NCBI GenBank assembly: GCA_009729775.1
Contig: GCA_009729775.1_4081.1
Strand: one strand, 5' to 3'
DNA from: Escherichia coli
Lineage (GTDB): Bacteria > Pseudomonadota > Gammaproteobacteria > Enterobacterales > Enterobacteriaceae
DNA: 64,000 bases
In this document: positions 1,953-28,074 of the stretch, piece by piece
Layout of the letters: each line of letters opens with the position of its first letter
Position numbering within the stretch: position 1 is the stretch's first letter
Program-made: the position numbers and the translations under genes
Notes under the pieces: generated by a model
The model's input: the letters and a program-made list of their open reading frames with translations, nothing else
Told to the model about the DNA's origin: nothing
Databases searched by the model: none

Positions 1953-1984
1953 AATATCTCTCCTTAGAGTTATTCTCTTATTAT

Positions 1985-3068: not shown

Positions 3069-3074
3069 ATATAC

Positions 3075-3103: not shown

Positions 3104-3580
3104 TTACATGTATACTTTTTTTAAATCCTTAGAACAACGATCAAAAATTGTGTTTATGAATTCAACATCTTCGATAATATTCGAATCGTTAGCAACATTT
3201 TCATTTCTTGTCGTGTTCCTATATGTGTGTTCAGGATGATTGTATACCACCTTGACTACATTATTTAGGTCTATAAAATTTGACGTTTTTTGTGTATAAG
3301 AAGCCTGAAGCTTGATGAGTTTACCATCATTCTCAAGATTGGTTTTATGAATTAGTTCTTCAATGCCAGTTAAATGGCTATAGCTATCTTTTTCTTTTAC
3401 AAAAGTAATAGTAACAAGAACTGCTTTCTCATCTCCCATATCGGAAATGTTTTTTACAGCACTGATAATTTCTAAGTTTGAAAAATCTAATTCTTTAAGC
3501 ATTTTACAAATATTTCCACAAAGTTCGATAAGTGATAATTTCTTCTCTGGTAACAGAAACTTCATTGCACTTAACACCAT
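3104..3580 (-). CDS. hypothetical protein (up to 158 aa; true start probably internal)
   Basis: ORF track; 5' end overlaps 3504..3860 by 77 nt so a downstream start is likely. Confidence 0.5.
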   Translation of the reverse strand: MVLSAMKFLLPEKKLSLIELCGNICKMLKELDFSNLEIISAVKNISDMGDEKAVLVTITFVKEKDSYSHLTGIEELIHKTNLENDGKLIKLQASYTQKTSNFIDLNNVVKVVYNHPEHTYRNTTRNENVANDSNIIEDVEFINTIFDRCSKDLKKVYM

Positions 3581-3860
3581 CAGTTTCAGTACTGAATGGT
3601 TGTACTGGTCTATCTTCTGTTAAACCTCGTTCATAAGTACAATGATAAAACTTATTTGTGCTCATGTCAAGAAATACGAGATCAAATTCTTCAGTCCACC
3701 TTCTGTTCCCTTTGCTTTCATTGTAGATGATTTTATATTTTACATCTGGTTTAAAAGTTTCAGTACTGTCATCCCATGCACCATAGTCAGTATATTCATC
3801 ATTTTCATCTAACTCTGCTAGATGCCACATTAATTGTGGTAAAAAGATTTTAGATTTCAT
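3504..3860 (-). CDS. hypothetical protein (118 aa)
   Basis: ORF track; ATG 3858-3860 preceded by GGAG RBS. Confidence 0.6.
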   Translation of the reverse strand: MKSKIFLPQLMWHLAELDENDEYTDYGAWDDSTETFKPDVKYKIIYNESKGNRRWTEEFDLVFLDMSTNKFYHCTYERGLTEDRPVQPFSTETDGVKCNEVSVTREEIITYRTLWKYL

Positions 3861-3871
3861 TTATTTTCTCC

Positions 3872-3899
3872 AAAAAAAAGGACTTGAATACTCAAGTCC
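3872..3899 (-). terminator. intrinsic terminator-like hairpin (GGACTTGA/TCAAGTCC) plus U8 on minus strand
   Basis: perfect 8-bp stem, A8 run on plus 3872-3879; immediately downstream of stop of 3913..4524. Confidence 0.5.
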
Positions 3900-3912
3900 C
3901 TATAATATCATA

Positions 3913-4524
3913 TCAATCATGTTTATTCAATTTCTTCTGTTCTTTTTTCAAAGCTTTCATATGACGACCAAACTCTCGAACATGCCATAGATGATCAGTT
4001 TCCCATAATTCTTGACGTAACCTACGTTCTTCTAGTAGTTTCGACTTGTCAATGTTATTTTTCTTTTTTTGTACATTAAAGAAATTATTCATATGTTCTT
4101 GGAGAAGATTACGACCTTTAACTTTCTCAAGAAACTCATCAACTGTTTCAGTTTTATTCGAACGTAGTTGATTACATCTGGAGCACATAGTATTAAAGTT
4201 TGACTCTAAATCAGGTCCACCCTTAGATGCCAGATGATTATGGTCAACTGTCATTAAAACTTCATAAAGACCACATACAGCATATACATTTAAATGTGGT
4301 TTACCATATACTGGATCAGAACATAATGAACGTTCAATGCGTACTTCAGTAGCTTCAATCCCACATGCCACGCATTTTGGATTCTTAATAAATGTAAGAA
4401 CTTTTTGTGGGAAATATCGAAAAGTAATACCATTTAAAGTGTAGCGTTTCATCTTAGTACTTCGTTGATTTAATTCGTCAAGAAGTGATAATTTGGTCGT
4501 ATAGTAAACATGATATTTGTTCAT
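3913..4524 (-). CDS. HNH endonuclease (homing-endonuclease-like), ~203 aa
   Basis: motif CVACG...TVDHNHLASKGGPDLESNFNTMCSRCNQLRS (HNH with flanking Cys pairs); start moved to ATG 4522-4524 (AAGGA RBS) to avoid 44-nt overlap. Confidence 0.7.
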   Translation of the reverse strand: MNKYHVYYTTKLSLLDELNQRSTKMKRYTLNGITFRYFPQKVLTFIKNPKCVACGIEATEVRIERSLCSDPVYGKPHLNVYAVCGLYEVLMTVDHNHLASKGGPDLESNFNTMCSRCNQLRSNKTETVDEFLEKVKGRNLLQEHMNNFFNVQKKKNNIDKSKLLEERRLRQELWETDHLWHVREFGRHMKALKKEQKKLNKHD

Positions 4525-4525
4525 T

Positions 4526-4834
4526 TTATTCCTTGATATTGATTTTAATATCTTTACCTTGTAAATCACGAATAGTTTTAATTAATGCATCATGTTTTAA
4601 AGCACATTCGTTGTATACTGCATCCCAACGAGTAAGTACTTTAAGAATTTCTGCACCATCATAACCTTTAAAACCATTTTTGTCAATCATAATTTTTTGT
4701 GGTAGAGGTGTATCATCATCACATCTTTCTAACAGAATTTCTTGTTTAATTGGTGCAGGGGATTGTAGTTTTACTTGTTCTGCACATCCACTTATAATTA
4801 AAAAAGAAATAAACGGAACTAATAATTTTTTCAT
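4526..4834 (-). CDS. putative o-spanin (outer-membrane lipoprotein, Rz1-like), 102 aa
   Basis: N-terminal signal with lipobox LIISGC; directly follows and overlaps the i-spanin-like gene. Confidence 0.5.
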   Translation of the reverse strand: MKKLLVPFISFLIISGCAEQVKLQSPAPIKQEILLERCDDDTPLPQKIMIDKNGFKGYDGAEILKVLTRWDAVYNECALKHDALIKTIRDLQGKDIKINIKE

Positions 4835-5205
4835 TTGAATTTATTCCTCGCAGCTTGAGAATTTTGTTTTAGTTCATTCAGTACTTTTACACCATCTTCA
4901 TCTAAACATACATTCTTATAAACTTCACGTTCTACAATAAAAGGAACTTTTGTTTCAATAACTTTAGCATTATCTTCCATGATTTTTTTAGTTTCAAGGT
5001 AATTTTTTGCATTTTCTTGTTGCATTTTATCTAAGGCGGTATCAACTTTTTTAGCTATTTGTTGCTCTATGCTTTGTTGATAGCCACTGTAATAAGTATT
5101 AGCTTCCCAGCCAGCATAAGCTGAACCGCCAATCAATAATACAAAAGAAATTGGTTTCCAAAATGGAATAAGAATTTTTGAAACAATTATTTCTAACATA
5201 CTCAT
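4831..5205 (-). CDS. putative i-spanin (Rz-like), 124 aa
   Basis: single N-terminal TM helix (WKPISFVLLIGGSAYAGW) followed by charged helical region; ATGA-type overlap with lipoprotein gene. Confidence 0.5.
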   Translation of the reverse strand: MSMLEIIVSKILIPFWKPISFVLLIGGSAYAGWEANTYYSGYQQSIEQQIAKKVDTALDKMQQENAKNYLETKKIMEDNAKVIETKVPFIVEREVYKNVCLDEDGVKVLNELKQNSQAARNKFK

Positions 5206-5258
5206 AATAATATCTCCTATAGTTGATGATATTATTTAGAGTATATAATTGTATAGAT

Positions 5259-5678
5259 TTACAACATTTTTTGAATATGTTCTGCTAGTTCATACAGCTT
5301 AGTTTCATTATTCTCGAACTTTTCATCAACTTGAACATTGAATTTTTCTTCTAGTTCCATTACCATTTCAATCCAATCAAGCCAATCAAAATGGAATTTT
5401 TCTTCGACTTCCAATTTAGTAAGATTGAAGTTCGCTGATACATCATTCTCTGATGTATCACAATAACGAGTAGTGATGAATTTGACAATTTCTTTTTCAA
5501 CATCGTTTAATTCACGAGTTTGATATTCGGGCTGAAGATACCACCACTCTCCCTTATTAATAGATTCCAATTCTTGTTTGATTTCATGCATTACTTTATA
5601 ACGGTCAGTACTTTTATGAATAGAATTGACTTCTTGATTCAATACATGTAGTGCATTTTTAATACGTTCATTTAACAT
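5259..5678 (-). CDS. hypothetical protein (139 aa)
   Basis: ORF track; AAGGTG RBS upstream of ATG 5676-5678. Confidence 0.6.
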   Translation of the reverse strand: MLNERIKNALHVLNQEVNSIHKSTDRYKVMHEIKQELESINKGEWWYLQPEYQTRELNDVEKEIVKFITTRYCDTSENDVSANFNLTKLEVEEKFHFDWLDWIEMVMELEEKFNVQVDEKFENNETKLYELAEHIQKML

Positions 5679-5689
5679 TTTATCACCTT

Positions 5690-5722
5690 ATAAAAAAAGA
5701 GAACTCCATATGAAGTTCTCTA
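5690..5722 (-). terminator. intrinsic terminator-like hairpin (AGAGAACT/AGTTCTCT) plus U7, overlapping the transcription start of the promoter at 5723-5751
   Basis: stem-loop 5697-5722, A7 on plus 5690-5696; downstream of stop of 5753..8542. Confidence 0.5.
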
Positions 5723-5751
5723 ATTATACATAATTACTTTTTCTATGTCAA
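5723..5751 (-). promoter_or_regulatory. sigma70-type promoter, consensus TTGACA-17-TATAAT, for 5259..5678
   Basis: minus-strand TTGACA (plus 5746-5751) and TATAAT (plus 5723-5728) with 17-nt spacer. Confidence 0.55.
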
Positions 5752-5752
5752 G

Positions 5753-8542
5753 TTATAAATCACGGAAACGATTTGGTGTGTTTAAACGATACATTGAGTA
5801 CAATCCCAATCCACGCATAATCTCACCTGCCCAGAAACCAAAAAACATACCATTATCAGTACCTTCTCTGACTGCTGGACTCCATGAACCATTCATTGGA
5901 GAACCTGGACTTACAATAACATAGTTCTTTTGAAGTTCGAGAACTAAGTTATCAGCGAGTGTTGTTAGACCTTCTATTTTACATCCAGCCAATCCAGCAG
6001 CACAAGCCCCAGCTAACCACAACCCACACATATGACCTGTAAAGTCCCAATCTGGACCTTCAACTGTGCCATCTTTATTGAAGATTGTTGGTGAACGACC
6101 ATCATTATCTTTTTGAAATTGAATTAAAAAGTGAATCCAATTCTCACAAAATTCAACAAGATCTGCTGGTGGTTCAATTCCTCTCTCTGCGAGTTCTTGC
6201 CATGCTCTGGCAGCCCCAAAGAACGCACGTGGTTCATACCCACTCCATGCTTGATCACCCCAATGTAGCATAGTAAATGTATCTGGTTCACCATATTTTA
6301 AGTTATCCCAGCGGTTCCAAACATATGCTTGTGCACATGGACCAACAGTACCGAATTGTTGAGTAAACCATGTTTGAGAATCTTTCATAAAGCTTAACAT
6401 GTTGCCTAAACGTGTGTTATCAACTGGTTGGTCTTTAAAACAATATATCACTGGATACTGATAACCAGGATAAGGCAAACCACGCCAACCTGAATACTGA
6501 TTCGCATACGGGTCAGTGATGTTAGAAAATGGTATTGTTCCTGGAGTGTAATGCAATGAGTTTAACAAATAATCTTTGATTACACAATCCCCTAACTGTG
6601 CAGTATAAGGTGATTCACCTGCAATTGTTATTGAAAATGTCATGGTATAGTCATCACCGTCAGCATCCGTATATAATTCTGGAATGTCATTAATACAATA
6701 CCAATCAATTATTGCAGCAACGCCATCTACTGGGGTTGTATCAGGTAAAATAGTAATATCTTCTAGCTCACTATAAACTGGTGCATCTGGTCTTGGGTCA
6801 GAACTTGGATGATTTGGCTGATACCCAGATAAACGTAATGTATCAGAACTTAGTGTGATAGTAGTCCATTCCCCGTGTGTTGCAGGAATCATCCACCACC
6901 ATCTCCAACCATTATCATCTATAATTCGTATATTATAATCATCTTCATATGAACGATATGTGAAAGATTTAACTTCAGACTTATTTGTTGCTAATAACCA
7001 AAATCCAATAACAGCACCATCATCTTCACCACAAACCAACTGATTAATTGTATCGCGTCTTGTGATTAATATATCAGTACTATATAACATTTCGGACGTA
7101 GCTGCACCATAAGGAACAACAATTCTACTATCAGCAATTATATAAGGGGAACCATCTGCTTTCTTTTCTCTAACAAATGCACTTAACGGTGTTAATGAAT
7201 GTGTGATATTTTGGTCTTTACTTTCTGGTAAGCCGCAACGATAACGAACAACATCATGGTCATTTTTTGTTTTTGACAATTCCAGTACTGGTTTAAATGA
7301 TAACGGTTTACCATCATCGCACACGCCACCATAGTCAACTAGCAATTTTGAATCAGCATTTACCCTGAACCAAATAGCTTGTTGCTCCATAGTACTCTGT
7401 GCACTTTGGTCTTGTCTGATAGTAATGTATCCTAACGAATTTCTACCAAACTTAGCAATAGCATCACTTGGATAAAAATATTCATAGGAAATACCATCAG
7501 TGAATGGTGTGGTTACAATTGTACTTTGTCTGAAAAATTTATCTCTGGAGTCGATATCACCATAAGCATAGCATGTGAGTAGTGAACATTTCCAACCCAA
7601 ATAATGTTTTCTTTCTTTAGTTATTTTATATAACAAATACGAAGCATCACTAAACCATAATTCTGCATCTGATGCGTTATCAGCAAATTCTAAATCAATT
7701 GGAACATGAAGTGGGCGGTTGTGTTGCATTTCATTTCGTTGAATTATTACACCACCATATTCTACTGGTTGACGATTAGCAAAATTTAATTTATATACAC
7801 CATTAATTGTTGTATTCTTTAATTGAACAGTTCCTTTTTCAGATTCGTCAAAACCTTCTGCTAAAATATTACCATCCCAGTCGATTTTTCTACCCATGAA
7901 ATCAATAATCCAGTCAACATCATATTGTTCACCTGGTGTATCCCAATCAACACTACCATCTGGTAATAAAGCTTTTACTGACGCATTTATTTGGTTCCAT
8001 GCTAAAGCACCTTTGAATGCAAATGTCACTTTATCCAAGAACTGACCATAATATGGTGCACCATGTGGTATTTTGCATTGACCATTAGTAAATGTAAATT
8101 CTACTCCCTTGAAACCACCATGTGTGGGCCAGCCATCATCAGCTAAAGGCCAGTTAGCCAATATAGGTTCTTTTGCATTAACTATCCAGTTACATTGTAG
8201 CGGTGTAGGTGGATCTGGTAATTCACGTCCAGCATAAAAGTACTGATGATATGCGTCCCAATACCACTTTGCCTTATCTAAAAACAATGGATCATTTGTA
8301 GCCAGATATGCATAAATGTATCCTAAAATTAATAGACTTTGACCTTCTGTTGTCCCGTCACCGTTTGGTTGACCTTCCATTGCAGAATAGTTAATAAAAT
8401 GGCGGTTGTTCGCCAAAACACCCTGATTGTTCACCACATAATGCTGTACTGTTGGATCTATAGTATCACCAGTATTTCTTTCAATAAATTTGTGATGCCC
8501 ATAAAGAAGTTGTACAATATTATCAATATTATTGTTTAACAT
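5753..8542 (-). CDS. large protein (929 aa), possibly tail-associated with glycosidase-like C-terminal region
   Basis: long ORF ending the tail-fiber-containing transcription unit; Trp/Gly-rich, C-terminal segment reminiscent of alpha/alpha-toroid glycoside hydrolases (weak, by eye). Confidence 0.65.
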   Translation of the reverse strand: MLNNNIDNIVQLLYGHHKFIERNTGDTIDPTVQHYVVNNQGVLANNRHFINYSAMEGQPNGDGTTEGQSLLILGYIYAYLATNDPLFLDKAKWYWDAYHQYFYAGRELPDPPTPLQCNWIVNAKEPILANWPLADDGWPTHGGFKGVEFTFTNGQCKIPHGAPYYGQFLDKVTFAFKGALAWNQINASVKALLPDGSVDWDTPGEQYDVDWIIDFMGRKIDWDGNILAEGFDESEKGTVQLKNTTINGVYKLNFANRQPVEYGGVIIQRNEMQHNRPLHVPIDLEFADNASDAELWFSDASYLLYKITKERKHYLGWKCSLLTCYAYGDIDSRDKFFRQSTIVTTPFTDGISYEYFYPSDAIAKFGRNSLGYITIRQDQSAQSTMEQQAIWFRVNADSKLLVDYGGVCDDGKPLSFKPVLELSKTKNDHDVVRYRCGLPESKDQNITHSLTPLSAFVREKKADGSPYIIADSRIVVPYGAATSEMLYSTDILITRRDTINQLVCGEDDGAVIGFWLLATNKSEVKSFTYRSYEDDYNIRIIDDNGWRWWWMIPATHGEWTTITLSSDTLRLSGYQPNHPSSDPRPDAPVYSELEDITILPDTTPVDGVAAIIDWYCINDIPELYTDADGDDYTMTFSITIAGESPYTAQLGDCVIKDYLLNSLHYTPGTIPFSNITDPYANQYSGWRGLPYPGYQYPVIYCFKDQPVDNTRLGNMLSFMKDSQTWFTQQFGTVGPCAQAYVWNRWDNLKYGEPDTFTMLHWGDQAWSGYEPRAFFGAARAWQELAERGIEPPADLVEFCENWIHFLIQFQKDNDGRSPTIFNKDGTVEGPDWDFTGHMCGLWLAGACAAGLAGCKIEGLTTLADNLVLELQKNYVIVSPGSPMNGSWSPAVREGTDNGMFFGFWAGEIMRGLGLYSMYRLNTPNRFRDL

Positions 8543-8543
8543 A

Positions 8544-9080
8544 TCATACTCCTGCTCTAATTAATGCACCGTACCATGTAACTCCTTTATCATATGTTTC
8601 TAATGAAATAATATCTTTTTCACCAATTTCATAAGAAAGAACAACTGGTCTATTATATGACCATTTAACATTTGAACCCCAATTAACGAGGTTAGACCCT
8701 GTTTGCTGAGTTAATAGGATAGTAATTGAATAAACTTCAGTAGGAGCAGAACCAATAGCAATAGTGGTATTTCTATCAGATAAATTAATATTAAAAACTG
8801 TATTACCTGATAGGGGATTAATTAAAATATTATTAGAACTCAATACATTATATAACTTGTTACTAGCACTATCATACAATGTTACCCATTCTGTTTCATG
8901 ATTCTCATTAGTAGCTTTAGCTTTTATTTTTACATTATTTTCGGAAGAAGTCATTCCAGTCCAGCCAGAAATAATAAAAGAACTGTTTTTATTTGTTCCA
9001 AATGATGCAATTACCGAATCACTAAGAGAACTATCTTCACCGTCAATAGATCCGAGTACTGACAATGTTAAAACCATCAT
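8544..9080 (-). CDS. hypothetical protein (178 aa), Ser/Thr/Asn-rich, possibly structural
   Basis: ORF track; composition. Confidence 0.55.
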   Translation of the reverse strand: MMVLTLSVLGSIDGEDSSLSDSVIASFGTNKNSSFIISGWTGMTSSENNVKIKAKATNENHETEWVTLYDSASNKLYNVLSSNNILINPLSGNTVFNINLSDRNTTIAIGSAPTEVYSITILLTQQTGSNLVNWGSNVKWSYNRPVVLSYEIGEKDIISLETYDKGVTWYGALIRAGV

Positions 9081-9243
9081 TTTTAATGTCTACGCCAGTT
9101 GCACCTGAAAAATTATTTTGAAATTTAATAACTCCGGTAGTGTGGATATCTGTGAAAATTTGTTGTGCCATACTTAATCCTTGCGTTAATTTATATTGAG
9201 TATTTATCGAGTATAATGGCATTTTTAGTACCATTATACTCAT
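9043..9243 (-). CDS. hypothetical small protein (66 aa); may be N-terminal part of 8544..9080 via frameshift
   Basis: ORF track; overlaps downstream ORF by 38 nt in another frame. Confidence 0.3.
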   Translation of the reverse strand: MSIMVLKMPLYSINTQYKLTQGLSMAQQIFTDIHTTGVIKFQNNFSGATGVDIKNDGFNIVSTRIY

Positions 9244-9248
9244 GTATA

Positions 9249-10481
9249 TTACTTATACCATTGCATTTCTCTGATATCAATGATAATTTTTGATGCTAAT
9301 TTAATGTTTGGTTTTTTGGGAAGTACTGATTTCTTATATAGAACATCACGAATGTATTGTACTTTATCATCGAAATATTCTAATACTTCTTCATACTTCC
9401 ACTTACCATTACGAATATCCATCAACATTTGTGCATCAGGTCGTTTAACTTGAATAATTCCACTCTGTAATGCTTCTTCTGCACTATTCAAAAGTCTAAT
9501 TGTGTGCATAGCATGTTTGCAATCGAATCCGTGTTGTGATTCTAAAATAGCACGTTTGGCATTACGATTTTCTTTCCATTTATGATAACTTTTCCTATTC
9601 TCACTATTTTCCTGATATTCTTTTTCGTTAAATTTTACAATTAGTTCTGGTTTGGTTTTCAACTCTTCAGTACTACGCTCTTTAGAAAAATAACGCAATG
9701 AACCATCACCATTGATAGTACTTTCATTCGGATTTTTAATAATCGCAAAAATGTTTTCTCCGTAATGAATTAGTTCATAGCCATTATTAAAATTCAATAA
9801 ATTGAAATCACGATCTAGAATTTTATCAGTAGTGTAGTTATGCACTAATCTTACAAAATGATATTGCTTTAATGGATTTTTCGAAACTAACTGCAATGAC
9901 GTATCACGCATATATTTTTCAAAATCAATCTTTTTAGCATTAAATGGATGTAAGTTCGATGTATCTAAACGTTCAACAAGATATTGTGGAAATGAATCAT
10001 ACATCCACGCAAGAACCTCATCGACTGGGTGTTCTTCTAAAATCTCATTTAATCGTTTTTCAGCAATACGCTCTTTATCCATCCAACCGTGATGATTTGT
10101 CATACGCTTAATCTGATTATATGCATATCCAGTGTATGAAAATGCAATCTTGGAACTAAGAAGTTTTTGGTTAAATGAACGAAGATAGTCATAAATTTCA
10201 GTACTTTCAACAATGTGTTCAGGTTCAACCCAAAGTGATTCAAGAATATTAGGGTTAGCTTCAGTGTATAATTTTAAATACTGATTCAACTCATAGAATT
10301 TAGTATCTTCTTCGCTTTTATCAGCTACCTCTTTGACCTTATAGAAGGGTGTAAGAATAAATTCTTTATTAGCAAGAAAAATACCACGATAATCAGTATC
10401 ACTTTCAGGTGTACTGGTTCCGTAGGCTTGTGACCCAGCCAAGTGTTTCACTATTGTTTGTTCAATATATTGGTTATTCAT
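9249..10481 (-). CDS. Pol-beta-superfamily nucleotidyltransferase (410 aa)
   Basis: N-terminal motif AGSQAYGTSTPESDTDYRGIF = GS-x9-SDxD nucleotidyltransferase signature; rest unassigned. Confidence 0.6.
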   Translation of the reverse strand: MNNQYIEQTIVKHLAGSQAYGTSTPESDTDYRGIFLANKEFILTPFYKVKEVADKSEEDTKFYELNQYLKLYTEANPNILESLWVEPEHIVESTEIYDYLRSFNQKLLSSKIAFSYTGYAYNQIKRMTNHHGWMDKERIAEKRLNEILEEHPVDEVLAWMYDSFPQYLVERLDTSNLHPFNAKKIDFEKYMRDTSLQLVSKNPLKQYHFVRLVHNYTTDKILDRDFNLLNFNNGYELIHYGENIFAIIKNPNESTINGDGSLRYFSKERSTEELKTKPELIVKFNEKEYQENSENRKSYHKWKENRNAKRAILESQHGFDCKHAMHTIRLLNSAEEALQSGIIQVKRPDAQMLMDIRNGKWKYEEVLEYFDDKVQYIRDVLYKKSVLPKKPNIKLASKIIIDIREMQWYK

Positions 10482-10879
10482 AGATAAATTGTTAACTCCT
10501 TTAAGAAACCATTATAATAACGATTAAAGTCATGTTCTAATGTTTTATAATCATCAAAACTAAAACCTAAATTGATAATTGTATCTTCTTGAAAGAAAGT
10601 TTCTTCATTCATACATTCAATAGGTTCGTAATTAATTCCACCTTTGAAAACTTTTGTAAAAAACATTCCATCATTATTAATTTCAACATACATAAAATTA
10701 TTTTCTGGATCACGAGGACAGACGATATTCAGTGAACTATTTCCACTTGTATTGTACTCATAAGAAATTATATCAAAAGAATCAATACCATAACACTTAG
10801 ATTTTTCTTTATCGCCAAATACTTTTCTATCTGTACTCATATTGCGTATAGTGCTATAGATATCATCAACTGTAGTCAT
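10478..10879 (-). CDS. hypothetical protein (133 aa)
   Basis: ORF track; ATGA overlap with neighbours. Confidence 0.55.
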   Translation of the reverse strand: MTTVDDIYSTIRNMSTDRKVFGDKEKSKCYGIDSFDIISYEYNTSGNSSLNIVCPRDPENNFMYVEINNDGMFFTKVFKGGINYEPIECMNEETFFQEDTIINLGFSFDDYKTLEHDFNRYYNGFLKELTIYL

Positions 10880-10881
10880 AG

Positions 10882-11391
10882 TTAACCACCATACTTTGAC
10901 TTGTATGTTTCAAGTGATAAAGATATACGATTTTGCTTTTTAATTCTTTCATCAATATCCTTTGAATTCTTCACACTTCGGTATACGTCAGCTAATAAAT
11001 TATAATCTTCTTTATTTGAGCTATGCTGTGTCCAACCTATGTCTGTTTTAATACGAACACTTGCTTTATTTGACGAGTAAAAGAAACTGAAACCATTTGA
11101 CCCATCAAAAATATCAAAAGTATCTACCCAATCACCATAAGGAAAACTCATTGGGACTGACTCGTGGTCGATTGTGATATCCGATAAATTTTTTGAACAG
11201 TACTTCGCAAAGTGATAAACGATTGGATCACATTTTGATAATTCGTATTTGTATTCAATGATAGTTTTTCTATTAGCATCATTGATAGCATATTCTTTTA
11301 TCAATGGACTTTTTTTGATGATAAGAGTCCATAGAAACGATTCTAATCCGGTTTCATCAACTTTTTGTTTCTTTTTGAAAAATGAAATCAT
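10882..11391 (-). CDS. hypothetical protein, tandem paralog 3 of 3 (169 aa)
   Basis: shares KSPLIK...DANRK.IIEYKYELSK core with the two upstream ORFs. Confidence 0.6.
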   Translation of the reverse strand: MISFFKKKQKVDETGLESFLWTLIIKKSPLIKEYAINDANRKTIIEYKYELSKCDPIVYHFAKYCSKNLSDITIDHESVPMSFPYGDWVDTFDIFDGSNGFSFFYSSNKASVRIKTDIGWTQHSSNKEDYNLLADVYRSVKNSKDIDERIKKQNRISLSLETYKSKYGG

Positions 11392-11909
11392 TTATATAAA
11401 CCCTTAATTTTCTGTCTATTATGTATATCATTTTGCTGGATTTTCAATTTAGTAAGGTTGTTTCTTACACCTTCAACTCCACGCATTATTTGTAACATAA
11501 TTAGTGATTCGTCATATGTTAGTACATTGCTATTATTATCGATATATACTTTCACTCCACTTTCAAGATAATCATTTTCTTTGGAGTTAAAGTTTCTAAT
11601 AACAAACTTAACGCCATTTGATGTATCACTGAAAACATATCGTTCCGCACCGTAGAATGTTTTTCCACGAAATAAACCGCCGTCTTCCCACTTCCAACGA
11701 CTAGATTCATAATCATTAACGTAATCAATGATTAAAGAAAGTAAAGGATGTTTGCTCAATTTATATTTTGCATCTAACAGGATACGTCTATCATTATCTG
11801 TGGTAATAATATCCTTTAGTGAGTAGCTTTTAGATATAATTTTAAAGATAATTTCATGCCAAATTAAAGTACTGTTTTGTTTTCCAACTGATCCAAAAAA
11901 CATATCCAT
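11388..11909 (-). CDS. hypothetical protein, tandem paralog 2 of 3 (173 aa)
   Basis: shares KSYSLK...DNDRR.LLDAKYKLSK core. Confidence 0.6.
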   Translation of the reverse strand: MDMFFGSVGKQNSTLIWHEIIFKIISKSYSLKDIITTDNDRRILLDAKYKLSKHPLLSLIIDYVNDYESSRWKWEDGGLFRGKTFYGAERYVFSDTSNGVKFVIRNFNSKENDYLESGVKVYIDNNSNVLTYDESLIMLQIMRGVEGVRNNLTKLKIQQNDIHNRQKIKGLYK

Positions 11910-11915
11910 TCCTCA

Positions 11916-12482
11916 TTAGTATAAATCAGTAATGTCTTTGTATGCATTAATCTGTTTTTGTTGTAATGAAAGTTCATTGAGTTTAGTTACCATTTTATCT
12001 ACACCAACACGTGTATAGAAAATAATAAATGAATCTAAATTGCCTAGAGTAATTCTTGAACTGAAATTTGAAAGTTTTCTTGCATAAACATAAATTTCTT
12101 CTTCACTTGGTAAACGTTTCTCAATCGGCCAGCTTTCCACACCATTCGGCTCATAATCGATTTCAAATTCAACTCCCATCACTGTGTCTTGAATGCGATC
12201 CGTATATGAACCACCGTAAAAATACTCTCTTGGTTTGGATCTCCAACGAGGACTAAATGGGTCAGTTGCGTATTCTTTTACAAATTTGTAAAAGGACATT
12301 TTACTGAGCATATACTTCATCTCAATTAGTGCTTTGCGGTCATCATCAGTTTTAAACTCTGCTTTTAGCGATGGACTTTTACACAGTAACTTAACTAAAT
12401 TGTTGTACATCTTTAATGTACGTTGTTCTTTCATTTCTTTGATTTTGTGACGTTTTGGTGGTGGTAATAAAGATTTGACCAT
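11916..12482 (-). CDS. hypothetical protein, tandem paralog 1 of 3 (188 aa)
   Basis: shares KSPSLK...DDDRKALIEMKYMLSK core; AGGAGG RBS; promoter upstream. Confidence 0.6.
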   Translation of the reverse strand: MVKSLLPPPKRHKIKEMKEQRTLKMYNNLVKLLCKSPSLKAEFKTDDDRKALIEMKYMLSKMSFYKFVKEYATDPFSPRWRSKPREYFYGGSYTDRIQDTVMGVEFEIDYEPNGVESWPIEKRLPSEEEIYVYARKLSNFSSRITLGNLDSFIIFYTRVGVDKMVTKLNELSLQQKQINAYKDITDLY

Positions 12483-12504
12483 AATTTCCTCCTATTTTTA
12501 TTCA

Positions 12505-12532
12505 ATTATACACATAAAAGAAAAGCCCGTCA
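12505..12532 (-). promoter_or_regulatory. sigma70-type promoter TTGACG-16-TATAAT; -35 lies inside the preceding terminator stem
   Basis: minus-strand TTGACG (plus 12527-12532) and TATAAT (plus 12505-12510). Confidence 0.5.
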
Positions 12533-12542
12533 ATAGACGAGC
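12515..12542 (-). terminator. terminator-like hairpin downstream of tail-fiber-like gene
   Basis: 7-bp stem (one mismatch) 12525-12531/12536-12542 followed on minus by U-rich run. Confidence 0.45.
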
Positions 12543-12549
12543 TTTAAAT

Positions 12550-15279
12550 TTATTTCCAACGTGTGCCTGGACCTGATGGTACACCAGTACTGGCAGGTAT
12601 CGCTGAACCACGTTTCGTTGTACTTGGACGATATGTCAAAAAACGAGTTACTTTTTCTGTATCAATTGAATTTATTCCTGAAGTTCCAGTAACTATCTTA
12701 CCAATGTAAGTGCTAGTTAAAGATTCATCAATTGTTTCAGTACTAATAACATATGACGCTTTCTTAGTATTCCTGTTCATTTGTATATACAAATAGAACG
12801 TAGTATTAGCTGGATTACTTTTTACAGTACTTAAATCAACACTTTGTATAGGTAGTCTGTCGAAAATTCCACCTAAAAACACCGGAACTTCACGTGTAAA
12901 GTACACTGAGAATCCTTGTGCAACGTCTTGTGATACTACCACAATCTTTTCTTTAACGCTACCATTTCCGCTAATTAAACCATCCATTTCAGCAGATGTT
13001 GTACCAAAAACGCTGAATACAGATTTGGTTTGATAGTCAGAATCTTGAAAATTGTAATATCCAAAACCAACACCAGGAATAACACCATGTTGATATGCTG
13101 CACCAAGTTGGATGTAACTAGATGATAAAAAACGATTTGATGTTATGACACCATCTACTGTTTTAGCTATCATCATCTTAAATTGTGCATTACCTGGTTG
13201 TGAAAATTGATGTACGGCATCAACACCAATGTAACCAAATCCTGAATATTTTGCAACTGTTAGACCAGTACAACGTTTCATATATGCTTCAGTAATAATT
13301 CCTGTAACAGAACTCAGTGTTTCATATCTAGTACTCACCAATGTAGCTGAAGTTATGTTAGTTCCAGATAATACAACATCAACTTCGGCATAGATTGCAT
13401 AACCTTGGTTATTGTTAAGATTATATGCTGAAACTACTGCGATGGATTTAGAAAAAGTATTATCAGGTACATAATATAATACAATTTGTCCAGATAGTGT
13501 ACCAACAATGCCAGAGTTTCCTATATTAGCAAAAATATCTTGTTTTAATGATTCTAATACCGTTGGTTCTATTGTATATGTTTCATCAAATTCTAAAGTA
13601 TCTGGATTTAATAATCCACCACTTGTTTTATATACACCTTCAATGAATGATGTTCCATAGCATCTAACACTACCATCGGTATCAACAAGAGAAATCATAG
13701 CAGTGTATGTAAAATCATCGCCTATTTGTTTACGATTAGATTGTGGTGCAAAACCATTTAATGTAGTATTATGTTGAACTGAGTTATATTGATATGTTGG
13801 TTGTGAACCTATTTCAGAAAAAACAGTATTATTATAATTATATGTTACATCATCATACGTACCAGAACATGCTAATAATATTTTTCTATTATCGATGAAA
13901 CGTACACCTAAAAGGTTTGCACCAACAGCACTACCAAAAACTGGTAAAACGTTTGCATTTATAACATTACTTGCGGATCTAGTACTGGCAACCCATGAAT
14001 CAAACGGTGTACCACTAACCTTATATCGTTGTAGACCATAAAATTCAGTTGAACTCCATCTAAATTTAGATGCAAATACCAAACCATCTTTAGTTTGACA
14101 TAAACCACCTGCGTTTCCTAATACGCCAGCAGCAGTTGTCCCGGTGAAGTTGACCATATCAATTTCAAAAGGGTTAGAAACTTGAAATCCATTATTATAT
14201 GAAACAGTCGCAGGTGCACGAGCACTACCATCTAGGGACATAGATTTTGAGTTTATATTATAAACAAAACTTATGCCAGTACCATAAACTGTTGAAATAT
14301 ACAAAGGTGTAACCATTCGATGTGTTGGATATAAAGTTACACGTATTTTTGATAAATCAGGACTAACGTTGGCTTGTATATTAAAGTCTGTATAATCTGA
14401 AAATTCTACACGTGATACGGGTGATGTAACTTCGAATAATGAATCCGAGCTAGTACCAACACTATATAATTTATCGAACACTCTTATGTTATTAGATGCA
14501 GAATAACTTGTGTTTCGAACAGTTTGTCCTGATAACCCAGTAACTTTTGTTAATGATGCCATTGAGCTTGCTTTCACATCACTTAGCTCTACTGTGTAAA
14601 TGGAAAGTGCTAATCCCAAATTAGAAACACTCTTATCTTTACACCAAATATAAACCTTTGTCCCAACAATATGTGTATATATTGGCATATCATTACCAAA
14701 AGAAGTACTTGGTACTTTAGCATGAATATGTGATATTTCGTTAAATGTACCATTGGTTATAGTGAAAATATAATTATCTTCAGTACTTAAACACCCAAGC
14801 ATTTCATAACCATTAGAGCCAATAAAGTACTTAATATTTTCAGTACTACTCATAATTGAAGGTTTATACATTGAATTGGTTGAAATAACACTTTCTTGTG
14901 AAATCATAGTTATATTTCTGATTTCTCGTATAAATGAATAATAAAAACCTTTAGTACTACCATTGGTTCCGCTACGCAGAACAACGGCGGTTCCATCATC
15001 TTCAATAATTGTTGGCTGAACTACTTGGTCACTTGACATAGGTGTAGCACCTTCATACGACCCACTTACGTTTAATGGTAAGTAATCCATTTCTCCTATA
15101 CGTGATATAGGCAACATATCTAAAATACTTTGAACTTCAGAACGCTTATATATTGGATATTGAACAATTCCAGTATTGGCATTCGGTGAGGTTCCATTAA
15201 AAGTACGCATAGCGTACCTTTGTCCAATTGCCAAGTTCCCAAGGATCTCGGCACTTCCTATAATTCGTTTTGATGACAT
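12550..15279 (-). CDS. tail-fiber-like protein, paralog B (~909 aa)
   Basis: start moved to ATG 15277-15279 (AAGGA RBS); N-terminal module LPIS.IGEMDYLP..VSG...GTAVVLRSGTNGS and C-terminal module shared with 15895..18591. Confidence 0.65.
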   Translation of the reverse strand: MSSKRIIGSAEILGNLAIGQRYAMRTFNGTSPNANTGIVQYPIYKRSEVQSILDMLPISRIGEMDYLPLNVSGSYEGATPMSSDQVVQPTIIEDDGTAVVLRSGTNGSTKGFYYSFIREIRNITMISQESVISTNSMYKPSIMSSTENIKYFIGSNGYEMLGCLSTEDNYIFTITNGTFNEISHIHAKVPSTSFGNDMPIYTHIVGTKVYIWCKDKSVSNLGLALSIYTVELSDVKASSMASLTKVTGLSGQTVRNTSYSASNNIRVFDKLYSVGTSSDSLFEVTSPVSRVEFSDYTDFNIQANVSPDLSKIRVTLYPTHRMVTPLYISTVYGTGISFVYNINSKSMSLDGSARAPATVSYNNGFQVSNPFEIDMVNFTGTTAAGVLGNAGGLCQTKDGLVFASKFRWSSTEFYGLQRYKVSGTPFDSWVASTRSASNVINANVLPVFGSAVGANLLGVRFIDNRKILLACSGTYDDVTYNYNNTVFSEIGSQPTYQYNSVQHNTTLNGFAPQSNRKQIGDDFTYTAMISLVDTDGSVRCYGTSFIEGVYKTSGGLLNPDTLEFDETYTIEPTVLESLKQDIFANIGNSGIVGTLSGQIVLYYVPDNTFSKSIAVVSAYNLNNNQGYAIYAEVDVVLSGTNITSATLVSTRYETLSSVTGIITEAYMKRCTGLTVAKYSGFGYIGVDAVHQFSQPGNAQFKMMIAKTVDGVITSNRFLSSSYIQLGAAYQHGVIPGVGFGYYNFQDSDYQTKSVFSVFGTTSAEMDGLISGNGSVKEKIVVVSQDVAQGFSVYFTREVPVFLGGIFDRLPIQSVDLSTVKSNPANTTFYLYIQMNRNTKKASYVISTETIDESLTSTYIGKIVTGTSGINSIDTEKVTRFLTYRPSTTKRGSAIPASTGVPSGPGTRWK

Positions 15280-15295
15280 CTTTCTTTTCCTTAAT

Positions 15296-15883
15296 TTACC
15301 AACCAATTGTACCAGTTTCTGATGGTTTTCCAGTACTGACTGGGAATGAAGAACCTTTTTGTGTAACACTAGGTCTATATGTACTAAATCTGGATACTTT
15401 ATTAATGTTTATATTTGTAATACCACTTGTACCAACGGTCAGTGTTCCAATAAACATTATAATTTCAGATTCTTGTATTTGTGTTGGTGATATTTTATAA
15501 ATTGGTTCACCGAGAACTAACGTTGCATATACGTATTGTGTTTGTGTTCCAGATGAAACTGTTGAAGCAAAAATAGAAACTGCTGGAAATTTATAAAGAT
15601 AACCACCAATAAATGATGGTATCTGTCTATTAAATGTAAGACTATATCCAGATGAAGTGATATTTAGACTTGCATCATCATACAATTCACCGTATTGTGT
15701 GAGGGGTAATCCATTTACAATAAAATTAACTTCATCTTTAGTAATAGAGGGGAATGTACATTCCCCATTTGAATTTGTTGGGTAATAAGTCATATTATTA
15801 CCTAATACACCAAGTCCAGTACTTTTACCTTGTACTGTAACTTGTTGCATTGCCTTAAGGTCTGCTCTTATTTTATATGCCAT
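15296..15883 (-). CDS. small protein (195 aa) sharing the tail-fiber C-terminal module
   Basis: C-terminus ...RFSTYRPSVTQKGSSFPVSTGKPSETGTIGW matches C-termini of both large paralogs. Confidence 0.6.
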   Translation of the reverse strand: MAYKIRADLKAMQQVTVQGKSTGLGVLGNNMTYYPTNSNGECTFPSITKDEVNFIVNGLPLTQYGELYDDASLNITSSGYSLTFNRQIPSFIGGYLYKFPAVSIFASTVSSGTQTQYVYATLVLGEPIYKISPTQIQESEIIMFIGTLTVGTSGITNININKVSRFSTYRPSVTQKGSSFPVSTGKPSETGTIGW

Positions 15884-15894
15884 TATGTAATCCT

Positions 15895-18591
15895 TTACCA
15901 GTTTATGGTTCCTGTTTGTGATGGTAGACCGTAGCTAACTGGGAACGATGAACCTGCTGATTCAAGTGAAGCACCAAATATATCTAAACGGGAACGTTTT
16001 TGTATATTAATTGTTTCGATTTGAATTGCATTAGTTTGAATAGTACCTATCCAAAAAATATTATATGCAGTTGTTCCTGTTTCAGAAATAACATCAGTAG
16101 TTATGTAATAGTTTGCCAATCCTTGTTCCAATTTAACATATACATAGAATGTTGTATTTGCTGGATTAGACTTAATAGTTCTCAAATCAATATTTGAAAC
16201 TGGTAGTGAAAATGACTTACCTGAAAGAATAACAGGTGTTTCCTCAGTAAAATAAACAATAAATCCTTGTGCAACGTCCTGTGACACTAAGTTAATTGGG
16301 CTACCTTGAGCAGTCCAGTTATTATAGTCTGTAATCGTTGTCCCATATTTTTTGAATGTCATTTTATTTGAGTAATCCATTGGCTCCAAAATTCCAAAAC
16401 CAATACCAGGTAATGCTGCGGGTTGACTTCCTTGTTCATAACTGGCATGAGATCCAGTAATAATAAAACTTGTAAATTGTGCAGTTGATTTAGTTACATA
16501 TGCTCTAAATTGATGAGTTGCAGTATTACCTATTGTTGGATGTGTTAATGGGTCAGAACCACCAATGAAGTAGAATGAACCACCATCATATATTGTCAAA
16601 CCAACAGAAGAAGATGCAATCGAACCATTCCCATTTGGTGTAAAGTTATCACCATATGTATTTTCAAGTACTAAACGCTTGAATGTAATAGATGTAATAT
16701 TACCAACTCTAGTATTAACATTAACTTCAGCAATTCTAATATAGTTTCTATAATCATTAGTAACTGTACTCAACATAACGAAAGCAGGAATGTCTGTTTG
16801 TTGCGGAACAAATAGTGTCATATCACGGTATGCTTGTGCTGATAAATTCCAATCACTTAGAACTTTCGCATATTCAGCATTTCTAAAATTATCAAGTACT
16901 GATTGTGTTACACTTATAATACCTGTACCATTTAAGTTTTTATCATAGGATAAAGATTGTGAATAACGTTGTCCAACCATAAAAATACCACCATTGGTTG
17001 TGACAGTTGACCCAGAAATACTACTAATAAAAATTCTATTATTTGCATTATCATCAACATTAGCACGTTCAACTGTAGGTTCATAACCTTGTATTGTTCC
17101 TAAAGATAATGATTTAAATGTAAAATTAGGAGTACTTTTATGAACTGCATATGATGGTCTAAATCCACCACTACCCGAAGCACGTGAATATTGTTTAGTA
17201 CTGTTATCTGGTAGTAATTCCACACCATTAATAAATGAGCCTACGGCTGAACCAAATGATGGACGAACTATTCCACCTTTGAAATCAGTTGATAGTACTG
17301 CACGGACATTCAGCATACTATAAACTATTTGAATAGGAAACTTAGCTTTTTGCATAAGTAATGGTTCTGCTAAGTTTGGACATGCAGTACAAAATGCTTC
17401 ACCAGAATTTAAATAAAAATAAGAACTGTAAATATTCCTTGCATTTGCATGGTTATACAATGGATCGTTATTTAAAACGTTACCAGTAGGAACTAATGCT
17501 GAACCAGTATCCGTTATAACTAATGGTGCTTGGTATGAACCAATATCATTACCCGCATCTAATGTACATTGTTTAGTACTCATATTGAATACAAAACTGT
17601 AACTATGTTGTGGTCGTGTATTATAAGTTGCCATTGTAAACCAAGCATCACCATTCATTCTAAAGCGGAAATTCTGTGTACCTGGCTGCTGTGCAACATA
17701 TAAATCGATTGATGTCATGTAAATCCCAATACCACGTAGATTTTTTGGAACATACACATAAGGTTTATCAGCGATATTCGTTGATGTTACCTGATTAGTT
17801 ATAACCATATTATTTTGTGCAGAATAAGTTGTATTATAAAATGTTTTAGTAGTCCATCCAGTAATACGAGTTGCTGTATAAGTGCCATTACTGATATTAT
17901 AAACAACTTTAACTACAACTAATTGTAATTGGTTATTTGCATTAAGTACGTTGAAAACATATATAGAACCATCTTCTGCCATCATAGCATATTCAATACC
18001 ACCTTCAGGTGATATATCTGCTTGGTTAACGAAAAAACCAGTATGCAATTTATCATCTAATGTACCATTGGTAATTGATATAAACAAACCATTAGTACTG
18101 TTAGAAGTGTCAATATATCTACCGAGTAAAATATTTGGATCAGTATTGTATAAACCAATCGCAACTCGATTTGAACCAAAAAATCCAGGCTTGTATTGAC
18201 GACTTGTGTTAATTGTACGGCTCATGTCATCAACTGATAATGCGTTAGCTAAATATGAATAAAATAATCCCTCAACACTACCGTTTGTCCCACTACGTAA
18301 AAGCACTAGTGTACCATCGTTTTCTAATAAAATTTTATTTCTACGTTGTGTCTGGTTTTCTGATGCACCATTGAAATCTCCAGAAACACCCGCAGGTAGA
18401 TAGTTTTGTGAACCATAATGGGAGATTGGCATCATACTTACTATATCTAGTACTTCATCTCTTGAATAAGTATCTAGCTCCATATTGCCATTAGCATCAA
18501 ATACTTGATCATTGATACCTTGTATTGTTCTTTTACCATTAACTGTCACATTATGTGTGACATCCAAGCCACCATATATTTTCTTTGACAT
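15895..18591 (-). CDS. tail-fiber-like protein, paralog A (898 aa)
   Basis: long Gly/Ser/Thr/Asn-rich ORF; shared N- and C-terminal modules with 12550..15279; T4-type late promoter upstream. Confidence 0.65.
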   Translation of the reverse strand: MSKKIYGGLDVTHNVTVNGKRTIQGINDQVFDANGNMELDTYSRDEVLDIVSMMPISHYGSQNYLPAGVSGDFNGASENQTQRRNKILLENDGTLVLLRSGTNGSVEGLFYSYLANALSVDDMSRTINTSRQYKPGFFGSNRVAIGLYNTDPNILLGRYIDTSNSTNGLFISITNGTLDDKLHTGFFVNQADISPEGGIEYAMMAEDGSIYVFNVLNANNQLQLVVVKVVYNISNGTYTATRITGWTTKTFYNTTYSAQNNMVITNQVTSTNIADKPYVYVPKNLRGIGIYMTSIDLYVAQQPGTQNFRFRMNGDAWFTMATYNTRPQHSYSFVFNMSTKQCTLDAGNDIGSYQAPLVITDTGSALVPTGNVLNNDPLYNHANARNIYSSYFYLNSGEAFCTACPNLAEPLLMQKAKFPIQIVYSMLNVRAVLSTDFKGGIVRPSFGSAVGSFINGVELLPDNSTKQYSRASGSGGFRPSYAVHKSTPNFTFKSLSLGTIQGYEPTVERANVDDNANNRIFISSISGSTVTTNGGIFMVGQRYSQSLSYDKNLNGTGIISVTQSVLDNFRNAEYAKVLSDWNLSAQAYRDMTLFVPQQTDIPAFVMLSTVTNDYRNYIRIAEVNVNTRVGNITSITFKRLVLENTYGDNFTPNGNGSIASSSVGLTIYDGGSFYFIGGSDPLTHPTIGNTATHQFRAYVTKSTAQFTSFIITGSHASYEQGSQPAALPGIGFGILEPMDYSNKMTFKKYGTTITDYNNWTAQGSPINLVSQDVAQGFIVYFTEETPVILSGKSFSLPVSNIDLRTIKSNPANTTFYVYVKLEQGLANYYITTDVISETGTTAYNIFWIGTIQTNAIQIETINIQKRSRLDIFGASLESAGSSFPVSYGLPSQTGTINW

Positions 18592-18625: not shown

Positions 18626-18633
18626 TATTTATA
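18626..18633 (-). promoter_or_regulatory. T4-type late promoter box TATAAATA upstream of tail-fiber-like gene
   Basis: exact TATAAATA on minus strand ~35 nt upstream of ATG 18589-18591; the octamer alone is expected by chance in AT-rich DNA. Confidence 0.35.
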
Positions 18634-18641: not shown

Positions 18642-18663
18642 AAAAAAGCACCCAACGGGTGCT
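18642..18663 (-). terminator. intrinsic terminator downstream of nrdG
   Basis: stem AGCACCC/GGGTGCT with U-run on minus strand (A-run 18642-18646 on plus). Confidence 0.55.
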
Positions 18664-18667
18664 TATG

Positions 18668-19138
18668 TTAAAAATCTTTATTTTTATATAGTATTCTTTG
18701 ATTATTTGAACCACGGAAAGGTAATTTTAAATTCTTTTCGGACTCGATAAACTTACCATCAACTAATACATCTAAGTACTGAAGTATATCTTTAGCATGA
18801 TTTTTCATAATCTCATCTAAAGTATACCCACTCCAGCACCAAATAGTTTTACTAGGATAAGTTTCTTTAACTACTTTGCATAGATTTAAAACTTCATCTA
18901 TATTCTTTTTCATTAATGGATCGCCGCCTAGAAGTGACAAACCACTAACATATGGTTTTTTTAGTTCCTGTAGTATAATCTCAACTGTTTCAGTACTGAA
19001 CAATTGACCACTTCTGTAATCCCATGCTTCTTCATTGAAGCAACCATCACATCCGTGCGAACACCCACTAACAAATAAAGAGCAGCGAACGCCCTCTCCA
19101 TTTACTAAATCATCCTTGATTATCGTCTGGTAATTCAT
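18668..19138 (-). CDS. nrdG: anaerobic ribonucleotide reductase activating protein (radical SAM)
   Basis: 156 aa; motif VSGCSHGCDGCFN; adjacent to nrdD. Confidence 0.85.
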   Translation of the reverse strand: MNYQTIIKDDLVNGEGVRCSLFVSGCSHGCDGCFNEEAWDYRSGQLFSTETVEIILQELKKPYVSGLSLLGGDPLMKKNIDEVLNLCKVVKETYPSKTIWCWSGYTLDEIMKNHAKDILQYLDVLVDGKFIESEKNLKLPFRGSNNQRILYKNKDF

Positions 19139-27290: not shown

Positions 27291-27848
27291 TTAGCTCCCT
27301 TTGTATTGATGTTTATGTTTTGTACTGTATTTCCAGCCAGTACTATGTCTTGTTCTGATATCGTCCCAATACGATGGTAATGAACGCATCTTACGTCTTC
27401 CACGTATATCAGGTTCCCCCTCATCCTTCAGTACTGCACAAGCCATACGACGCTCTTGTTGAGTCTTAGGACGCTTGTATCGGGAGTGGTTATGTTTGTA
27501 CATATACGAACGCTTATGACGCCATTCCGTATCACGAGCTTTACGTTTATGTTCCCAGTACTCATTATAGAGTATCATGTATTCACCCATAAGTAAATCA
27601 GGAGATACAAGTAATCCTTTTTCAGTACAAAGATAATAACCCACAAACTTTTCTGGAAACATTTCGTAATAGAAACGGTTCTTCCAAAATGTTTCACGAT
27701 TCTTTTTGTTGAATTCTGCTAAATCAAATTTCATCTTACTGTGGAAACGATCTATCCCTTGATGGTCAGCAATGTATTGAAGTAGATCGTCTACAATCTC
27801 AACTTTACCAGAATCGTGATACAACGTAAATGTTTGGTCAAAAAACAT
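27291..27848 (-). CDS. hypothetical protein with strongly basic C-terminus (185 aa)
   Basis: ORF track; K/R/H-rich tail. Confidence 0.55.
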   Translation of the reverse strand: MFFDQTFTLYHDSGKVEIVDDLLQYIADHQGIDRFHSKMKFDLAEFNKKNRETFWKNRFYYEMFPEKFVGYYLCTEKGLLVSPDLLMGEYMILYNEYWEHKRKARDTEWRHKRSYMYKHNHSRYKRPKTQQERRMACAVLKDEGEPDIRGRRKMRSLPSYWDDIRTRHSTGWKYSTKHKHQYKGS

Positions 27849-27944
27849 ATGAAATCTCCTTTAAGTTAAAATAACCTAATGGAAAGTCATTCTTCCTTTA
27901 ATACATGTTCTCATGATTTGTTCCTTTTGTCAAGATATAGATAT

Positions 27945-27970
27945 AAAAAATCCCTGCCAAAAGACAGGGA
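27945..27970 (-). terminator. intrinsic terminator (TCCCTG/CAGGGA) plus U6 ending the 33.5-28.0 kb transcription unit
   Basis: perfect 6-bp stem, 8-nt loop, A6 on plus 27945-27950. Confidence 0.5.
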
Positions 27971-27990
27971 CGAAAAACTGAAATAACACA

Positions 27991-28055
27991 TGGAGTTCTT
28001 TTTAATTTAATAAAAAGTATTATTATTCTTATAAAAGTATTTATTAAGAACTCCA
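27991..28055. repeat. 10-bp perfect inverted repeat (TGGAGTTCTT / AAGAACTCCA) separated by ~45 nt of AT-rich DNA
   Basis: seen directly in the sequence between gene 28075..28263 and the terminator. Confidence 0.4.
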
Positions 28056-28074
28056 CAATATTGCTTCAAATGAA

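Follow-up and report, generated by a model that had tools for sequence, protein, structure and literature searches.

A late-type operon of an Asteriusvirus jumbo coliphage encoding candidate baseplate host-recognition proteins and a conserved headless paralog

In siphophage receptor-binding proteins (RBPs) and in TssK of type VI secretion systems, a shoulder domain docks trimers onto baseplates. Here we describe a three-gene operon, A-B-C, whose products are predicted to carry a comparable beta-sandwich. The operon lies in a 64,000-nucleotide stretch of DNA (the window; contig GCA_009729775.1_4081.1 of an assembly deposited as Escherichia coli) that belongs to an Asteriusvirus jumbo coliphage. 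With PBECO4, phAPEC6, SP27 and others the region shares 97% identity, with G17 and 121Q ∼95%. The reading that we favor, and hold to be probable, is that A and C are host-recognition virion proteins of the baseplate periphery, whose ends would attach the protein and whose propeller head would engage a host glycan, and that B is a headless assembly subunit.

Several described systems resemble this locus in part. In contrast to the RBP of phage p2 (2WZP), the RBP of phage 1358 and the TssK shoulder, the sandwich encoded here is C-terminal, following a large body and preceding a conserved tail of 28–35 residues; the likeness is one of fold without sequence similarity, and it was found with a predicted model, not an experimental structure. 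SPP1 gp22, also among the fold matches, is a shoulder-only protein. The phiKZ proteins gp131–135 and SPN3US gp168, fiber proteins of the baseplate periphery in Chimalliviridae, are likewise virion paralogs encoded in tandem; they have terminal modules in common, distal domains of propeller type and a small truncated member (gp132, 110 amino acids (aa)). Unlike them, A, B and C have no gp131-like N-terminal domain, and the phiKZ proteins are without the shoulder-like C-terminal module; no match to a hidden Markov model (HMM) of the A family was found in the ∼140 kb of phiKZ searched. Gp45 of Staphylococcus phage phi11 (5EFV) is a non-fibrous trimeric baseplate RBP with a beta-propeller glycan-binding 'platform' (Foldseek E = 4e-4), although this match is weak and generic (query-normalized template modeling score 0.13) and the domain order, attachment stem and phage type differ. 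Finally, RaK2 and K64-1 carry their tail fiber and tailspike cluster, ORF525–534, in the same slot, directly after nrdG and downstream of nrdD-nrdG, and several of its members have been verified in virions by mass spectrometry (MS). There is no homology between the two clusters, and no homologue of A, B or C was found in RaK2: the RaK2 proteins are beta-helix-type spikes, whereas A and C are propeller proteins.

Genes A (15895..18591 (−), 898 aa), B (15296..15883 (−), 195 aa) and C (12550..15279 (−), 909 aa) are consecutive minus-strand open reading frames (ORFs) between nrdG and a set of small genes of unknown function. A sequence-only reading of this DNA had taken them for paralogs with common modules, and the alignments agree: A and C align over their full length (27% identity, E = 6e-61), and residues 77–195 of B align with residues 774–898 of A (36%, E = 9e-17) and 787–906 of C (43%, E = 3e-23). 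The C-terminal module that the same reading had noticed in B is therefore present, and B also carries the N-terminal block, which had been missed (B 1–85 against A 1–74, E = 5e-7). The motifs quoted as common, LPIS..G..YLP..VSG, LLRSGTNGS, SNPANTTFY and SFPVS.G.PS.TGTI.W, were all found, except that C ends slightly differently (SAIPASTGVPSGPGTRWK). When all six frames of the window were scanned with HMMs, no further copy of these modules appeared outside A, B and C. Shared modules of paralogs within one phage are 23–47% identical.

Protein A begins with an N-terminal segment (residues 1–43), followed by a helix and an LPxSxYG hinge (44–60), a beta-propeller-rich body (∼61–773; 16273..18411 (−)), a shoulder-like beta-sandwich (∼774–870) and a conserved C-terminal tail (871–898). 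Sandwich and tail together form the shared C-terminal module (774–898; 15898..16272 (−)), which ends in ...SSFPVSYGLPSQTGTINW. C has the same architecture, with its module at residues ∼787–909 (12553–12921 (−)) and a C-type tail ending in ...GTRWK. In B an N-terminal segment with helix and hinge (1–67) and a short linker lead directly to the sandwich (77–160) and the conserved tail (161–195), so that the portion missing from this headless paralog is the body of A. The hinge motif, LP[IV]S.[FY]G, is common to all versions of the family and separates the anchor from the body or module that follows. The start of C is the ATG at 15279, which has an AAGGA ribosome-binding site (RBS) upstream; a longer form with a GTG start (939 aa) would overlap B. 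A 929-aa 'tail protein' (5753–8542), considered as a further paralog, is unrelated to A and C.

The AlphaFold2 model of A, built with a 37-sequence alignment, is compact and all-beta, with a predicted local distance difference test score (pLDDT) of 86.8 and a predicted template modeling score of 0.80. Residues 1–23 and 872–898 are disordered, a single helix spans 44–53, ∼50 short beta-strands are spread over 86–770, and a small beta domain occupies 775–870. Its only fold matches were generic beta-propellers at 5–10% identity, and the modeled body probably comprises two propellers. These results do not favor the tail-fiber-like character given to the proteins by the sequence-only reading: the model is globular rather than an elongated fibrous fold of the T4 gp12 or gp34–37 type, the Pfam scans returned no fiber domains, and the parallel beta-helix catalytic domain of tailspike depolymerases was not found in the model. 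The shoulder-like fold of the C-terminal module of A was read from the model of B, whose core (residues 70–160) has a pLDDT of 85–95. That core matches the p2 and phage 1358 RBPs, the tail fibers of A-1(L) and HFTV1, SPP1 gp22, TssK and a phi812 baseplate protein, and the predicted model has the beta-sandwich fold of RBP shoulders and the TssK N-terminal domain. A profile search with one of our family profiles (A3) aligned the whole sandwich, including its MFIG motif, with phiKZ gp49 (9xqs_M; a 138-aa subunit of the hexagonal inner baseplate ring). With E = 0.28 when the whole PDB was searched and 6e-4 in a small database, the match lacks significance by itself, and it was not used as evidence. 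The phiKZ baseplate scaffold protein gp27 was also considered as a counterpart and was set aside, its 898 residues being a coincidence of length with no sequence or fold match.

The best propeller matches include GH130 phosphorylases, sialidases (among them the endosialidase of phage phi92), GH43 and GH32 enzymes, ulvan lyases and NanH. With such catalytic propellers at the top, A and C might instead be virion-borne glycan-degrading enzymes, glycosidases or lyases that act as depolymerases and clear capsule, lipopolysaccharide or another polysaccharide before the true receptor is reached. Depolymerase-type tailspikes in the same slot of RaK2 point in this direction, as do polar body residues that are invariant or nearly so across the paralogs (R99, H183, R509, E90, D92, E622 and D739) despite their 27% identity. 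However, the lectin propellers AofleA, SapL1 and AAL score as well as the catalytic ones, all matches stay at 5–10% identity, and no acidic residue of the body is strictly invariant across the paralogs. Neither a family signature nor the catalytic residues of a propeller glycosidase or sialidase were found: Pfam scans of A, B, C (E up to 1) and seven long relatives gave no match, and PDB searches with the single sequences and the A1 family profile gave none either. On this balance we rate the enzymatic explanation as possible, and clearly less likely than host recognition. The sequence-only reading had itself regarded a predicted structure of non-fibrous enzymes as counting against it; non-fibrous the model is, while the status of enzyme is not shown. 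PHROG families 3573, 7449 and 26864 hold these proteins and have no assigned function.

The origin of B can be followed in related genera. In the slot after nrdG, CBB (Mimasvirus) and Yen9-04 (Eneladusvirus) have three full-length paralogs of ∼900 aa, and the CBB authors list the three slot proteins as paralogs (PMC5259590). Comparison of the modules gave position-specific orthology, in which A pairs with CBB_147, B with CBB_148 and C with CBB_149; the orthologues of C are CBB_149, Yen9-04 g139 and Munch_171. Residues 1–67 of B match residues 1–67 of CBB_148 (E = 8e-11) and residues 79–195 match 798–916 (45%, E = 1e-30). Since both ends of B match the ends of CBB_148, B corresponds to the middle paralog minus ∼730 residues, and judged from these alignments it is the predicted positional orthologue of the full-length middle paralog in CBB, GAP32 and Yen9-04. 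Paralog-specific C-terminal signatures are likewise kept across genera (A, ...INW; B, ...IGW or ...INW; C, ...RW[KHNQ]). A simple duplication yielding 'dual' determinants, as first proposed, thus gives way to an ancient triplet whose members each have orthologues at their own position in other genera and whose middle member has lost its body.

The A-B-C layout is common to Munch, ph0011, Turkey5, WPEC5 and G17. Having lost ∼730 residues of a full-length ancestor, B could also be no more than the decaying, functionless rest of a deleted paralog. We regard this as very improbable, because the orthologues of B hold a length of 195–202 aa down to 46% identity, its ratio of nonsynonymous to synonymous substitution rates (dN/dS) is 0.20–0.37 (a conservative estimate, dS being saturated) and it has its own AAGGA RBS. 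In addition, analogous headless forms occur in Agricanvirus (DM_18), in Goslar (00028) and in 51 of the 147 best representative clusters of the family described below.

That the products are virion proteins, as the sequence-only reading had supposed, agrees with published MS data. The A orthologue of phAPEC6, gp323c (98.6 kDa), was found in virions with 4 peptides (PMC7247149), and homologues of CBB_148 and CBB_149 were detected in GAP32 virions (PMC5259590 supplement 5), the data from which the 'structural' label of CBB_147–149 derives. In the phAPEC6 record (MK817115, 6151–9484) intact orthologues of B and C have no annotated coding sequence, and a spurious 114-nt ORF is annotated there; the published phAPEC6 virion proteomics therefore could not have found B or C. 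A further identity considered was that of the 'hair' or whisker proteins seen in phAPEC6 and CBB; it was rejected because the model is globular and because homologues occur in GAP32, for which whiskers are not reported by the CBB authors, who leave the point open.

The transcription signals around the operon are those expected of late virion genes. An intrinsic terminator hairpin after nrdG (18646..18664 (−); AAGCACCCGTTGGGTGCTT followed by a T-run) closes the upstream unit; it is kept in 7 of the 8 genomes compared (absent in Turkey5), and the G17 record has a terminator annotated at this site. A T4-late-promoter-like box, TATAAATA (core ATAAATAC), lies at 18626..18633 (−), 35–42 nt upstream of the start codon of A. 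There are 2 copies of TATAAATA in the 64-kb window against 12.6 expected by chance. The core ATAAATA is found at −38 to −42 of the A orthologue in G17, WPEC5, Turkey5, ph0011, Munch, CBB and Yen9-04, and across the same 7 genomes the spacer around it has diverged while the core was kept. According to the CBB paper (PMC5259590), ATAAATA stands ahead of structural genes in that phage, which is also reported to have a gp55-like sigma factor. The T4-type box seen by the sequence-only reading ahead of the first gene can accordingly be retained as a late-type promoter box, suitably spaced ahead of a virion gene. The intergenic gaps within A-B-C are 11–16 nt, an AAGGA-type RBS is visible ahead of both B and C, and an intrinsic terminator at 12522..12545 (−) closes the operon, at the place where the G17 and Munch records also annotate a terminator after C. 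Late expression of A-B-C is a well supported prediction from these elements.

To place the module in a wider family, a profile was made from B and the modules of A and C, and hits at E ≤ 1e-3 were counted as clusters of 50% identity representatives. At least 538 clusters contain the module. Among the best 147 the lengths are bimodal, with 51 clusters at 130–260 aa (headless) and 70 at 870–1030 aa; a few distant relatives are longer, with the module internal and 400–600 residues after it. Fusions link the family to baseplate fibers. Agricanvirus DM_19, Elvirus EL ORF114/115 and Seoulvirus SPFM16 YomR (1727 aa) join an N-terminal anchor like that of phiKZ gp131/133/134/135 to an A-family body, and SPFM16 YomR has the same size as SPN3US gp168, listed as 'baseplate/fiber protein'. 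DM_18 (420 aa) consists of a gp131-like anchor and the module only. The headless Goslar_00028 (169 aa) adjoins gp131-like fiber proteins, one of them with a Peptidase_S74 domain, and the N-termini of short metagenome forms match tail-fiber PHROGs. In the phiKZ atlas (2026), the fiber base at the outer baseplate is a hetero-hexamer of gp131-like N-termini, and the propeller of gp131 lies distally (PMC13250141); in the homologues the A-family body takes the place of this distal propeller. In A, B and C themselves the A1 and A3 profiles gave no match to gp131–135, and no gp131-like NPH-motif anchor was found. Paralog clusters of about three adjacent genes were also seen in Deimos-Minion (DM_18/19/20; 1613–9924), Goslar (Goslar_00026/27/28; 661–8549) and EL (ORF114–116; 2836–12947). 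Only 00026 and 00028 of the Goslar trio match the module profile, and in the EL trio only ORF114/115 have an A-family body and none is headless.

The operon diverges far more between related phages than do its neighbors. Compared with ph0011 at the protein level, the flanks are 88–94% identical and A, B and C 54, 44 and 51%; compared with WPEC5, the flanks are 89–97% identical and A, B and C 86, 72 and 74%. In both comparisons dS is saturated in the cassette and modest in the flanks, and dN/dS values of 0.08–0.38 for A, B and C indicate purifying selection. Nucleotide identity falls across nrdG-A-B-C and recovers directly past the terminator, the right boundary of divergence in ph0011 being the intergenic region between C and p188. 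A recombination boundary inside the 3' end of C in ph0011, suggested by BLASTN, was discarded because a codon-level sliding window shows divergence through the whole of C. On the other side, nrdG (18668–19138) is more diverged from WPEC5 and ph0011 than are nrdD and the DUF4326 gene (81–87% aa identity, dS ∼1.3), which suggests a left boundary of the exchanged cassette in or near nrdG. Among the A orthologues, residues 1–120 and 750–898 are more conserved than the middle, and the C-terminal module is the most conserved part. In these sequence comparisons the operon behaves as an exchangeable, fast-diverging cassette under purifying selection, a pattern typical of host-recognition modules. The host-range role that the sequence-only reading had assigned is plausible in view of a cassette that diverges so much faster than its flanks, and is inferred, not shown.

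The same divergence could arise from relaxed constraint or co-evolution if A, B and C were a non-recognition scaffold of an enlarged jumbo-phage baseplate, like the outer-periphery proteins of phiKZ. Such a role would suit the position-specific triplet orthologues across genera with different hosts, the conserved end modules, the many large scaffold proteins in phiKZ baseplates and the low MS abundance. It accounts poorly for a sharp island of divergence with saturated dS between flanks of 88–94% identity, which points to the cassette exchange typical of host-range modules; moreover, in homologues the body replaces the distal propeller of gp131-type fibers, and the RaK2 slot holds tailspikes. 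We therefore consider a pure scaffold unlikely, and more so than an enzyme.

Host recognition at the baseplate periphery, the reading that we prefer, would work as follows. A late operon running from promoter box to terminator would encode virion proteins of the tail baseplate periphery. In A and C the N-terminal anchor, hinge, shoulder-like sandwich and C-terminal tail would form the assembly and attachment unit, which is how the shared modules had been interpreted from the start and how they are still best read; the sandwich would dock in the manner of the shoulder domain to which we liken it, and the conserved C-terminal tail probably serves as a contact surface, either between subunits or for docking. 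The propeller head, which varies more, would face the host and bind, possibly cleave, a surface glycan. B, the middle member of the ancestral triplet, would have lost the head and kept the whole assembly unit, and most likely still takes part in the same assembly, either as a headless subunit or by filling a docking site.

Several observations weigh against this reading. The module is C-terminal in A, B and C, unlike the N-terminal domain of the p2 RBP and TssK, and with 23–47% identity within one phage the modules do not resemble those of interchangeable RBPs that use a common docking site. Matches to propellers are so generic that binding and catalysis are indistinguishable. The MS evidence for A amounts to only 4 peptides with 5.6% coverage, and CBB_147–149 are absent from the virion MS of CBB itself (PMC5259590 main-text table). 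As A, B and C have no detectable gp131-like anchor, the link to baseplate fibers is drawn from homologues only, and a baseplate location in this phage is suggested indirectly, by the fusion proteins and the literature (PMC13250141; PMC5105663).

The low identity between modules of one phage can also be seen in another light. Instead of three separate homotrimers, A, B and C may form a single obligate hetero-oligomer, such as a 1:1:1 heterotrimer, to which each gene contributes its own chain and which is held together by diverged complementary end modules; in Asteriusvirus this would give an asymmetric two-headed receptor-binding complex with one headless chain. We put this forward tentatively, because three-gene sets with a headless member recur in two other jumbo lineages (DM_18/19/20; Goslar_00026/27/28), because phiKZ builds a hetero-hexameric fiber base from gp131 paralogs, because the paralog-specific C-terminal signatures are kept and the modules are not homogenized within a genome, and because all three genes diverge together as one cassette.

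Other features of the window include two more coding-strand ATAAATA elements. One, at 9201–9207 (−), is the only other one in the first 20 kb and lies ∼30–36 nt upstream of a 42-aa ORF (9043–9171 (−)), which is phAPEC6 gp315c (4.66 kDa, MS-detected). The next gene is a 178-aa ORF (8544–9080 (−)) that is unannotated in phAPEC6, followed by the 929-aa protein (5753–8542 (−)), a member of PHROG 2871 ('tail protein') that corresponds to phAPEC6 gp314c ('tail fiber', likewise MS-detected); the 9201 box and its downstream genes are a second late-type virion island. The third and last element, at 28038–28044 (−), is upstream of small ORFs of unknown function (27898–28056 and 27291–27848) and could mark another late gene. 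Downstream of the operon terminator are tandem small paralogs of 188, 173 and 169 aa (10882–12482 (−); PHROG 18641/7868, function unknown), served by a near-consensus sigma70-like promoter, TTGACG-17-TATAAT, at 12533–12505. These paralogs are ∼90% conserved in WPEC5 and ph0011 and only 30–37% in Turkey5.

Asteriusvirus phages (PBECO4, 121Q, phAPEC6, G17 and others) are therapy candidates against O157 and avian pathogenic E. coli, but hardly any of their adsorption apparatus carries an annotation: in every record examined the three genes are labeled 'hypothetical', and two of them were not called in phAPEC6. What is probably new here is the combination, in a candidate RBP-type baseplate protein, of a propeller head with a shoulder-like module at the C-terminus, accompanied by a headless paralog that has been conserved. 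Phages that are otherwise nearly identical differ in this promoter-to-terminator cassette as a whole, which makes it a concrete target for host-range engineering. The module, which has no Pfam match, ties together Rak2-like phages, Agricanvirus and the baseplate-fiber proteins of Chimalliviridae, and the recurrent 'headless' paralogs are a possible design feature of jumbo-phage adsorption machines. If the three proteins do form a hetero-oligomer, the hetero-hexameric fiber principle of phiKZ would extend to another large phage group.

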